64,000 nucleotides of DNA from Candidatus Poribacteria bacterium (lineage in GTDB: Bacteria; Poribacteria; WGA-4E; GCA-2687025): contig OY762492.1 of NCBI GenBank assembly GCA_963665845.2, forward strand, positions 3,104,001 to 3,168,000, given 5' to 3'. Under the pieces are notes generated by a model. The model saw nothing but the letters and a program-made list of their open reading frames with translations. It was not told where the DNA came from and ran no database searches. Below are positions 48,641 through 51,701 of this stretch, one piece after another. The position numbers were made by a program, and so were the translations under genes. Position 1 is the first letter of the stretch, and every line of letters starts with the position of its first letter.

Positions 48641-50128
48641 TCACTCCTCCTCGCCGCTGTCGTCTTCCTCCTCGTCCCCGCCGCTCGGCGGCTGCCGTTT
48701 CAGACGCTCCTGCTCATCGAAGCGGCGGAAGACCTGCTCAACCTCCTCGCGCGAATGGCGTTTGCGCACGGCGTTGTAAGCGTCTTGGGCATGCTGGGCG
48801 TCGCCCGACTTGGCGAAGGCGCGCGCCATTCCGAGCAGCGCGTTCATGTAGCCTTCGGGCGTCGCCTCGGAGAGACCGTACTCCATCTCAAACGCAGTCT
48901 GGTATGCCTTGGCGAAGTCGGCGTATGCCGCCGCCATGTCCATCTCCGCGCCGGGCGGAGGAGGGGGCGGCGCGCCTTCAGGGCGCGGGGCGTCCGGCTC
49001 TGGCGCGTCCGGCGGTTTCGGGGCGTCCGGCTGGCGCTGCGGCGTTTCAGGAGTCTCGCTTGGCGGAGCAGGCTGCTGCGCCGATTCAGCGGCGGCAGCG
49101 GCGCGCGCCTCCCAAATGAGCGGAAACGGCTCGCCCCGCTCAAGTCGAATGATATTGCCGCCAAGAGGAACGAATCCTGCCTCTTTCGCAAGAAGATACT
49201 GATCCAGCGCCTCCGCATACAAGCCTAACCTTTCATAAGAAACGCCAAGTTTGTTGTGAAGACGACCATCAACAGCTCCTTTTGCCTGGTCAAGATAAGG
49301 CGCAAGCGCAGCAATCGTTTCTTCCGGGTGGTTATAAGAAAATGTACGCGTTGCGACGATGAGAACCTCTTCATCGTTTGGATGATGCTCTATGAGTTGA
49401 CGGGATACCTCGGCGGATTCAGCCATGTTGTGTTTGAGAATCAGCGCATCGCGCGAGGACGGATCCTTCTCAAGAGCGCGGTTCACATACTCAAGCGCGT
49501 ATTCCCGCTCTCGTAGCCACCCCCATCCGTCAGGAGGATCCGCCAGATGGCGCGCGGCGGTCAAATCGTCCAGCCCCTCCACCAGAATCTCAATGACGCG
49601 GCGCGGCGTTTTCCCTCTCGGATTGAATGTGCCGTACTCCTCAAAGATCGCTTTCCGAATCAGATTTTCGCGCGCCGACAAATGCGGTTTCCATCGCCAC
49701 ACATAAAATCTGCTGAAGTTTCTCACATACTCGTCCCGCTCTTCGGGCGGCAGCTTCTCCAGATCCTTCCGCATCATTTCAAGGCGTTGGACAACAGATT
49801 CATCATTTCGTTTATGCGGCGAAATCTGGCTGCGCACAATCTCAATCCACCGGTCCGCGCTGTAACGGAACGAGAAGTCGGCTGTCTTGAGTTCGGCGTT
49901 GGAGCCGCTTTCTCCGCTTTCGGTCGACTTGGAGACAGGCTCATCAGGCGCGTCTACAGGCGTGGTCTCCTTCTGGACGGCGGTCGGCGCGTCAACCGGC
50001 GTCTCATGTTCTGCCGTTTGCGTTGACGCGCGCATAAAGACTGCCGCCGCGATCGCCGCCAGCAAAACGGCGCCGACCAACAGCGCGAGGCGCGCCCTGC
50101 GGTGTGATGAGCGTTGCGTTGTTTTCAT
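48641..50128 (-). CDS. Array member 3: membrane-anchored TPR-like protein (495 aa)
   Basis: Same architecture. Near-identical to member 2 outside a central patch. Confidence 0.85.
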   Translation of the reverse strand: MKTTQRSSHRRARLALLVGAVLLAAIAAAVFMRASTQTAEHETPVDAPTAVQKETTPVDAPDEPVSKSTESGESGSNAELKTADFSFRYSADRWIEIVRSQISPHKRNDESVVQRLEMMRKDLEKLPPEERDEYVRNFSRFYVWRWKPHLSARENLIRKAIFEEYGTFNPRGKTPRRVIEILVEGLDDLTAARHLADPPDGWGWLREREYALEYVNRALEKDPSSRDALILKHNMAESAEVSRQLIEHHPNDEEVLIVATRTFSYNHPEETIAALAPYLDQAKGAVDGRLHNKLGVSYERLGLYAEALDQYLLAKEAGFVPLGGNIIRLERGEPFPLIWEARAAAAAESAQQPAPPSETPETPQRQPDAPKPPDAPEPDAPRPEGAPPPPPPGAEMDMAAAYADFAKAYQTAFEMEYGLSEATPEGYMNALLGMARAFAKSGDAQHAQDAYNAVRKRHSREEVEQVFRRFDEQERLKRQPPSGGDEEEDDSGEEE

Positions 50129-50201
50129 CGTCTTGGACCGATCCAAGTTGCTAAGCCGTCTAGGAACAGCATAACGCCTCGGCGCTAGCGCCGCAAGCCG
50201 C

Positions 50202-51701
50202 TCACTCCTCCTCGCCGCTGTCGTCCTCATCCTTGTCATCGCTCGGCGGCTGCCGTTTCAGACGCTCCTGCTCATCAAAGCGGCGGAAGACCTGCTCAAC
50301 CTCCTCGCGCGAATGGCGTTTGCGGACGGCGTTGTAAGCGTCCTGGGCGCGCTGGGCGTCGCCCGCTTTGGCGAAGGCGCGCGCCATTCCAAGCAAGGCG
50401 TTCATATAGCCTTCAGGCGTCGCCTCGGAGAGACCGTACTCCATCTCAAACGCGCTTTGGTACGCCTTGGCGAAGTCGGCGTATGCGGCCGCCATGTCCA
50501 TCTCCGCGCCGGGCGGAGGAGGGGGCGGCGCGCCTTCAGGGCGCGGGGCGTCCGGCTCTGGCGCGTCCGGCGGTTTCGGGGCGTCCGGCTGGCGCTGCGG
50601 CGTTTCAGGAGTCTCGCTTGGCGGCGCAGGCTCCTGCGCCGATTCAGCGGCGGCAGCGGCGCGCGCCTCCCAAATGAGCGGAAACGGCTCGCCCCGCTCA
50701 AGTCGAATGATATTGCCGCCAAGAGGAACGAATCCTGCCTCTTTCGCAAGAAGATACTGATCCAGCGCCTCCGCATACAAGCCTAACCTTTCATAAGAAA
50801 CGCCAAGACTGTCGTGAAGGCTTCCATGGACAGCTCCAACAGCTCCTTTTGCCTGATCAAGATAAGGCGCAAGCGCAGCAATCGTTTCTTCCGGATGGTT
50901 GTAGTCAAGAGCGAGTGATGCGTACCAAAGCGCCTCTTCGTCTTTCGGATGATATTTAATGAGTTGACGCGCGATCTCAGCGGCATTCGTCCCTGGAAGA
51001 TAGCGTTTGAGAATCAGCGCCTCGCGCGAGGACGGATCGTTCTCAAGAGCGCGGTTCACATACTCAAGCGCGTATTCCCGCTCTCTTTTCCACCCCCAGC
51101 CGTCAGGAGGATTCGCCAAATGGCGCGCGGCGGTCAAATCGTCCAGCCCCTCCACCAGAATCTCAATGACGCGGCGCGGCGTTTTCCCTCTCGGATTGAA
51201 TGTGCCGTACTCCTCAAAGATCGCTTTCCGAATCAGATTTTCGCGCGCCGACAAATGCGGTTTCCATCGCCACACATAAAATCTGCTGAAGTTTCTCACA
51301 TACTCGTCCCGCTCTTCGGGCGGCAGCTTCTCCAGATCCTTCCGCATCATTTCAAGGCGTTGGACAACAGATTCATCATTTCGTTTATGCGGCGAAATCT
51401 GGCTGCGCACAATCTCAATCCACCGGTCCGCGCTGTAACGGAACGAGAACTCGGCGGTCTTGAGTTCGGCGTTGGAGCCGCTTTCTCCGCTTTCGGTCGA
51501 CTTGGAGACAGGCTCATCAGGCGCGTCTACAGGCGTGGTCTCCTTCTGGACGGCGGTCGGCGCGTCAACCGGCGTCTCATGTTCTGCCGTTTGCGTTGAC
51601 GCGCGCATAAAGACTGCCGCCGCGATTGCCGCCAGCAAAACGGCGCCGACCAACAGCGCGAGGCGCGTCCTGCGGTGTGATGAGCGTTGCGTCGTTTTCA
51701 T
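50202..51701 (-). CDS. Array member 2: membrane-anchored TPR-like protein (499 aa)
   Basis: Same architecture. Confidence 0.85.
   Translation of the reverse strand: MKTTQRSSHRRTRLALLVGAVLLAAIAAAVFMRASTQTAEHETPVDAPTAVQKETTPVDAPDEPVSKSTESGESGSNAELKTAEFSFRYSADRWIEIVRSQISPHKRNDESVVQRLEMMRKDLEKLPPEERDEYVRNFSRFYVWRWKPHLSARENLIRKAIFEEYGTFNPRGKTPRRVIEILVEGLDDLTAARHLANPPDGWGWKREREYALEYVNRALENDPSSREALILKRYLPGTNAAEIARQLIKYHPKDEEALWYASLALDYNHPEETIAALAPYLDQAKGAVGAVHGSLHDSLGVSYERLGLYAEALDQYLLAKEAGFVPLGGNIIRLERGEPFPLIWEARAAAAAESAQEPAPPSETPETPQRQPDAPKPPDAPEPDAPRPEGAPPPPPPGAEMDMAAAYADFAKAYQSAFEMEYGLSEATPEGYMNALLGMARAFAKAGDAQRAQDAYNAVRKRHSREEVEQVFRRFDEQERLKRQPPSDDKDEDDSGEEE

Follow-up and report, generated by a model that had tools for sequence, protein, structure and literature searches.

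Segmental divergence between two tandem TPR-protein genes of Candidatus Poribacteria, and a tentative link to a predicted exported protease

The divergent patch of m2 and m3

Why do two adjacent genes that match almost base for base differ densely in one stretch of about 300 bp? The question arises from 64,000 nucleotides of a Candidatus Poribacteria genome (GenBank GCA_963665845.2, contig OY762492.1), here called the window, which corresponds to C1:3104001-3168000 of G000, a 3.98-Mb genome in three contigs that is 90% complete. In the window, an array of five genes of one family, m1 to m5, runs on the minus strand from 53156 to 45226, and the pair in question is m2 (50202-51701; 499 aa) and m3 (48641-50128; 495 aa). 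They belong to a Poribacteria family of predicted membrane-anchored tetratricopeptide repeat (TPR) proteins with 18 copies in G000. The initial annotation had counted six array genes; there are five, and a sixth member of the family, H (14967-16520, minus strand; 517 aa), lies elsewhere in the window. TPR expansions in this uncultured, sponge-associated phylum are normally taken as host-interaction factors, and the locus offers a testable function for an unannotated, amplified family: m2 and m3 differ almost only in about 38 codons, so that the question of specificity can be put to a direct test.

A comparison of m2 with m3 gives 5 differences in 582 nt over codons 1-194, 59 nt plus five gap codons (two and three, both in frame) over codons 195-298, and none in 174 nt over codons 299-356. 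A single 100-codon window holds 59 of the 66 differences found in codons 1-400, a concentration reached in 0 of 2000 permutations. The near-identity over the first ~190 codons and the confinement of dense differences and small in-frame indels to a ~300-bp patch were thereby confirmed as initially annotated, and the peptides quoted for the two patches were correct. In m2 the patch occupies 50808-51119, and in m3 49250-49546. It lies between two exact tracts that appear homogenised, one of 330 nt on the 5' side (m2 51120-51449, identical to m3 49876-49547) and one of 174 nt on the 3' side (m2 50634-50807, identical to m3 49249-49076). Within the patch, a dense core at codons 233-269 (42 of 105 nt different; about 49432-49328 in m3) is accompanied by smaller clusters at codons 195-206 (6/36), 221-232 (2/36) and 282-298 (9/42), and the clusters are separated by identical runs of 42 and 36 nt. 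The proportion of synonymous differences (pS) is 0.33 in the patch, with a nonsynonymous proportion (pN) of 0.14, as against a pS of about 0.01-0.02 in the flanks. Base-for-base identity had also been claimed for the linker and the C-terminal module. It holds for the segment directly after the patch but not for the module (codons 405-475; m2 50277-50489), which is conserved as protein and present in 18 copies in G000, yet differs between m2 and m3 at 17 of 213 nt (pS 0.30; 12 purely synonymous codons) and has halves with different nearest paralogs.

Identical flanks would also arise if the assembly had collapsed two strain alleles of a single gene or joined them into a chimera, and we compared the assembly with sequencing runs X1-X4, which come from one study and may include the source, and X5, X6, X7 and X9, from other studies. 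In X3, the two patches form separate contigs at depths of 21.2 and 20.5, both exact matches, next to 19.7 for a unique m4 contig and 36.9 for a shared 617-nt contig; the X2 depths are 20.2, 25, 27.2 and 35.9, and the patches are again exact. The shared contig is 1.3-fold (X2) and 1.9-fold (X3) deeper than contigs at about single-copy depth, depth being a rough guide only. X4 covers the m2 patch, and X6 holds both patch types together with one common N-terminal contig, 20 nt off the G000 sequence. In X7 and X9 only the m2 type was seen, and X5 yielded an m3-type piece at low depth. Both types also occur as whole proteins in other assemblies (m2 type, P0001 and P0013; m3 type, P0002), so that the patch itself is no artefact. 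On the other side, none of the run contigs compared spans both m2 and m3, X1 (73% of the run read) gave the m3 patch only, and a contig of 3374 nt in X7 has a single gene of the m2 type, which shows that single-copy strains exist. We conclude that the patch is real and that the tandem arrangement of m2 and m3 is probable; an origin of the whole pattern in assembly is very unlikely.

Probable recombination within the family

Gene conversion or unequal crossover is very probably the process behind the m2/m3 pattern, because old sequence (pS 0.33) sits between recently homogenised flanks (pS ~0.02). The rest of the family is mosaic as well. A second five-unit array, which includes B1 to B4, lies 2 Mb away at C1:1134672-1141863 (L021:4673-11864). 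m1 (51777-53156; 459 aa) has its counterpart there in B3 (C1:1136414-1137793), with 1073 nt identical; B1 and B4 are identical over 716 nt; and B1, B2, B4 and m5 have one common N-domain joined to two TPR types. The patch pattern itself recurs between m5 (45226-46938; 570 aa) and B2 and between R_a and R_c of the sister genome G001, which is of the same genus (0 of 2000 permutations in each case), and, by eye, in a pair that flanks a protease gene in another family (L098).

Nine regions examined in G001 hold 11 family members. Six of the nine are synteny breakpoints, three of which bring together flanking sequence from two separate family loci of G000, against a background that we read from the output as about one other breakpoint per 10 kb of flank; two are insertions at sites empty in G000, and one is syntenic. 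The family thus also marks chromosome-rearrangement breakpoints. One insertion carries a protease gene and a three-gene array (L027:8276-14215; empty site at C1:~549495), the other a single family gene (L033:6580-8037; empty site at ~1269200), and no mobilising gene was identified at either.

Segmental conversion or patch exchange had been proposed at the outset. Recombination is supported by the patch-confined high pS, the family mosaics and the re-paired flanks in G001, but the exchange with a donor is not. BLASTN against G000 and 29 family coding sequences returned only the two patches themselves, and among 92 family proteins no non-allelic sequence came closer to the m2 core than 50%. In P0004, a core resembling that of m3 (86%) sits on an N-domain of 51-55% identity. 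Since P0004 is itself a chimera and monophyly of m2 and m3 over the patch was not rejected by the approximately unbiased test (p 0.25), we claim neither a donor nor a direction. Import from an unsampled lineage and homogenisation of the flanks on either side of an old difference that was retained account for the pattern equally well. The latter corresponds to a divergence-peak model, which proposes that a local peak between duplicates with homogenised flanks marks sites under selection (PMC3924837). The red and green opsins treated there (Fawcett and Innan 2011, PMC3924837) resemble m2 and m3 in this respect; unlike the opsins, the present family is bacterial, has 18 interacting copies and may include inter-strain imports.

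The block LPEDGLHS...AADQFQKA, noted initially in members 1, 4 and 5, is indeed a common motif. Its DNA is only 80-81% identical, however, and it is a conserved family motif and no exchanged tract. The common leader of m4 (47037-48566; 509 aa) and m5 was confirmed, with 9 differences in 154 nt including the upstream spacer.

Dense, localised variation in a predicted binding region could also suggest that a diversity-generating retroelement or a programmed cassette system rewrites the patch. Retroelements of this kind combine a reverse transcriptase with a template repeat and make adenine-specific changes. The chance of such a system here is close to negligible: G000 has no RVT_1 match at 90% completeness and no template or silent donor copy, many changes are synonymous, the indels are in frame, and A is involved in 20 of the 42 core differences. 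Hypermutation was rejected on the same grounds (synonymous changes, indels, absent template, no reverse transcriptase match in G000). In silent-cassette systems of the vlsE, pilE and msp2 type, one expression site is fed by promoterless partial donor cassettes. Antigenic variation of this kind was likewise discarded, as all five array genes are complete open reading frames (ORFs) with leaders, and the genome holds no patch donor.

The TPR groove and a predicted protease partner

From its sequence, m2 comprises a hydrophobic N-terminal anchor, a low-complexity linker, a helical N-domain, a TPR solenoid of ~3.5 repeats, a Pro linker and a conserved helical C-module, an architecture repeated in m3. 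The model of m2 (58 sequences; mean predicted local distance difference test score, pLDDT, 73.9, mostly above 90 in residues 180-320) has the same layout, with a disordered linker, the solenoid at residues ~186-338 and a C-module of four helices. Pfam TPR models matched at E-values of 5e-5 to 9e-3, under the gathering cut-offs. Structure comparison (VIA) aligned 126 residues, at Z 11.1 and rmsd 2.5 A, with a designed repeat protein of the TPR type, and matches at Z 10-11 and rmsd 2.5-4 A include MamA, TTC0263 and CTPR; Foldseek with the m2 model gave no match at E<=0.001, and an Atlas search with m2 returned generic TPR clusters only. As modelled, m2 and m3 are TPR solenoid proteins, built of tandem 34-residue helix pairs. 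The leader points to membrane anchoring and a periplasmic location. On this model, the dense core (m2 51005-50895) covers the end of TPR helix A1, a loop, B1 and the groove helix A2, and a sub-cluster at 50858-50808 covers a loop and helix A3.

Groove positions (2, 5, 6, 9, 12, 13, 33 and 34) were set a priori from PMC1261162 and were placed in the family by repeat register, not by coordinates. m2 and m3 differ at 11 of 22 groove positions and at 4 of 28 convex positions (p 0.007). Across the family, entropy is 2.29 bits in the groove against 1.57 bits on the convex side, and among nine close pairs there are 65/198 groove and 27/252 convex differences, with seven pairs in that direction. The patch had been thought to be the specificity-determining region. 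The enrichment of differences on groove positions fits a specificity surface, short of proof of positive selection, the groove dN/dS of these nine pairs being 0.65 (convex, 0.19). We lean towards selection having kept the groove different between m2 and m3. Under a neutral alternative, conversion tracts would have been halted by sequence that had already diverged and is weakly constrained, so that variable loops and groove residues escape homogenisation. This would agree with ratios below 1 everywhere, with the likewise high pS of the C-module, and with the identical runs inside the patch, which coincide with conserved helices. It is nevertheless quite improbable: across most close pairs that are not identical, this block has the lowest identity of any segment (the pairs not being independent), both types persist in several assemblies, and the N-domain, equally variable, was homogenised.

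A candidate ligand emerged beside H. Directly upstream of this gene, and overlapping it at the stop, lies a gene for a predicted exported metzincin-like protease (16507-18066, minus strand), with a signal-peptide-like leader, an immunoglobulin (Ig)-like N-terminal part, the motif HEAGHAVNLEH and a putative Met-turn. In 36 aligned sequences, the H, E and H of HExxHxxGxxH/D are invariant. A third His and a near-invariant Met were also observed in the family; the window copy has N for G. Profile matches were to astacin (E 1e-4) and serralysin (1e-3), and Foldseek with the protease model matched the Ig-like part only. A search across the class found the protease family in 30 of 121 genomes. In G000 and G001, all five protease genes lie directly upstream of a family gene, four with overlapping stop and start. 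In other genomes, a family gene was found within 353 bp of 13 of 20 protease loci but of none of 20 control loci; three loci examined earlier, two of them chosen via a TPR match, also carry an adjacent family gene. Two independent searches were also crossed over G002-G060, without G000 and G001 and with three split matches merged. Of 39 protease matches, 24 had a family match at most 3 kb away, in every case on the same strand, where 0.2 were expected. Tandem TPR arrays flank several proteases (L093, L100), and the two proteases most alike (75%) also have the TPR cores most alike (85%). Among the matches listed, several of the seven misses in the set of 20 protease loci adjoin anchored helical genes below cut-off, some of them near-identical tandems. 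Two such sets in G033 (L094:1740-4603 and L095:6286-8015), beside a protease and missed by the hidden Markov model of the TPR family, may represent another partner family or one that has diverged strongly.

We put a rough probability of 0.45 on the array being a stock of inhibitor- or immunity-like proteins, each fitted to another variant of the predicted secreted metzincin and diversified by segmental recombination. m2 and m3 are paralogs whose flanks were probably homogenised by homologous recombination around an older, diverged stretch lining the predicted groove; under this reading, orphan TPR copies would be stockpiled in arrays as inhibitors tuned to differing protease variants. We favour it because few enzyme genes, each with a partner, and many orphan paralogs that vary in the groove make up the layout of the esaG/tipC arrays and of polyimmunity loci. 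That the TPR protein directly binds and inhibits the predicted protease, outside the inner membrane, likewise stands a little short of even odds. More doubtful is the broader proposal of an undescribed Poribacteria conflict system, in which polymorphic, partly phase-variable exported metzincins would attack neighbouring symbionts and TPR immunity arrays would re-deal the groove in blocks of ~100 bases. If this broader proposal is true, many TPR "eukaryotic-like proteins" of the sponge lineage would serve bacterial defence rather than host manipulation, and in m2 and m3 nature would have done a swap experiment that singles out the specificity helix.

Several observations weigh against the inhibitor-stock reading. 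Neither five-unit array of G000 adjoins a protease gene; of the 76 TPR-family matches, no more than 29 have one at a distance of 6 kb or less; and in 10 of 59 genomes TPR matches occur but no protease match. The protease model is weak (pLDDT 58), with Pfam and NCBIfam matches below cut-off; co-divergence of protease and TPR protein is based on five pairs; and adjacency fits a chaperone or an anchor equally. Two of the nine close pairs lack the groove excess, the groove dN/dS is not above 1, relatedness among pairs and genomes overstates the p-values, and groove hypervariability is general for TPRs whatever the ligand (PMC1261162). B1 and B4 are a reverse case, differing in the N-domain with the patch the same. 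The contrast between residue 171, which sorts by genome (R in m2 and m3, Q in P0001 and P0002), and 27 sites that sort by type depends on that one residue.

The same recombination could have acted on proteins that are anchored in the membrane and serve the adjacent protease as chaperones, activators or surface tethers, spare copies being by-products of array expansion. Lipase-foldase pairs offer an analogy. Tight same-strand coupling with stop/start overlap suits such a role, as does an N-terminal anchor followed by a linker and a helical domain; it is unlikely in view of 18 copies against two G000 proteases, of which one carries a frameshift and the other starts out of frame, and of the fact that most copies are intact and diverge on the groove.

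In another alternative, the TPR proteins are eukaryotic-like and have proteins of the sponge host as their ligands, which might for instance let phagocytosed cells escape digestion, and the patch alters host-ligand specificity or evades recognition by host or phage. The named homologues are from Candidatus Poribacteria; close relatives were found in 2 of 41 genomes and weaker ones in nine further genomes, a metagenome scan (JGI) gave one weak locus, and related alleles are present in sponge-metagenome runs, relatives in X6 and X7 among them. A TPR-type eukaryotic-like protein (ELP) changed a bacteria-sponge interaction (PMC13747020), and groove variation would suit host binding too. The family shares with the ELPs of sponge symbionts (PMC13747020) a TPR protein in a sponge-metagenome lineage; it differs in its strong linkage to a bacterial protease gene. 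Host binding leaves the class-wide linkage to the protease unexplained, and the uncleaved-looking anchor suggests a periplasmic location. We regard it, too, as improbable.

Returning to the inhibitor-stock reading, recombination among tandem paralogs is already known, and the new part is the metzincin-TPR pairing with its arrays, of which we found no description in Poribacteria in the open-access literature at the level of titles and listings. The type VII secretion (T7SS) immunity arrays, esaG and tipC, likewise consist of tandem paralogs with homology blocks, spacer included, around variable regions; they are mosaic, gain and lose copies by homologous recombination, and far outnumber their partner genes (Garrett et al. 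2022, PMC9484751). m1-m5 also show blocks of homology flanking variable regions, and mosaicism, and the single-copy m2-type locus of X7 indicates change in copy number. A family gene stands beside a candidate effector for the family at large (5/5, 13/20 against 0/20, and 24/39), not for the m1-m5 array. Here, however, the partner is a predicted Sec-exported metzincin rather than a T7SS nuclease or phosphatase, the fold is TPR, the host is diderm, and copies are also dispersed and at rearrangement breakpoints (compared with PMC9484751). Homogeneous polyimmunity loci resemble m1-m5 as arrays of one protein type with no adjacent toxin gene (Zhang et al. 2012, PMC3482391), and both TPR immunity families (TPR-Imm1-4) and metallopeptidase toxins have been described (PMC3482391, PMC9424270). 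The closest functional model is the KLIKK peptidase/potempin system of Tannerella forsythia, in which a secreted peptidase gene adjoins that of a membrane-anchored partner, as is predicted here. Potempins, however, are beta-barrel lipoproteins of 98-132 aa, one per peptidase (PMC9890683), whereas the present proteins are TPR proteins of 460-580 aa in multi-copy, recombining arrays; the 499-aa m2 model is all-helical, and the m2 and m3 leaders have no cysteine.

Both G000 protease copies look impaired. In the window copy (18066-16507), the ribosome-site ATG and the body stand in different frames, and the other (C1:687763-686172) is broken into three frames. All three G001 protease genes (L027:14080-14300, L031:10000-10220 and L034:8380-8600) have a run of C9-C11 just past the start; one gene is in frame with the ribosome-site ATG and two are out of frame. 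C1 of G000 has only four runs of at least 9 C/G. These tracts suggest slipped-strand phase variation.

Array layout and neighbouring genes

A spacer of ~75 nt is repeated ahead of each array gene. The copy before m3 (50129-50201, minus strand) is a conserved homology block without an Rfam match, and the spacer is restricted to family genes. An apparent resemblance to attC was dropped on these two grounds. An Rfam scan of 45000-55200 gave a tRNA as its single match, and counts of promoters and terminators were no different from those of shuffled sequence. The ORF at 28355-26868, considered as a sixth array member, encodes a transporter.

At the start of the second array, a fragment of 163 aa joins a TPR piece straight to the C-module, and the array's member B2 reads past the usual stop into the spacer, adding 14 residues. 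The solo family genes at L026 (upstream of 5708) and L033 (upstream of 6580) are preceded by a 3'-end remnant of another copy and a spacer, which we interpret as the likely scar of array contraction.

The tRNA gene (54882-54955) lies 1.7 kb upstream of the m1-m5 array, past a sulfatase gene. Between repeat-rich spacers, 56285-59437 encodes a 1050-aa, methyltransferase-containing restriction-modification protein (Eco57I-like, weak Pfam match). Typical repeat-bearing proteins of the window include an S8 subtilase with FG-GAP repeats (23125-27351; 1408 aa) and a CotH kinase-ankyrin fusion (6396-8141).

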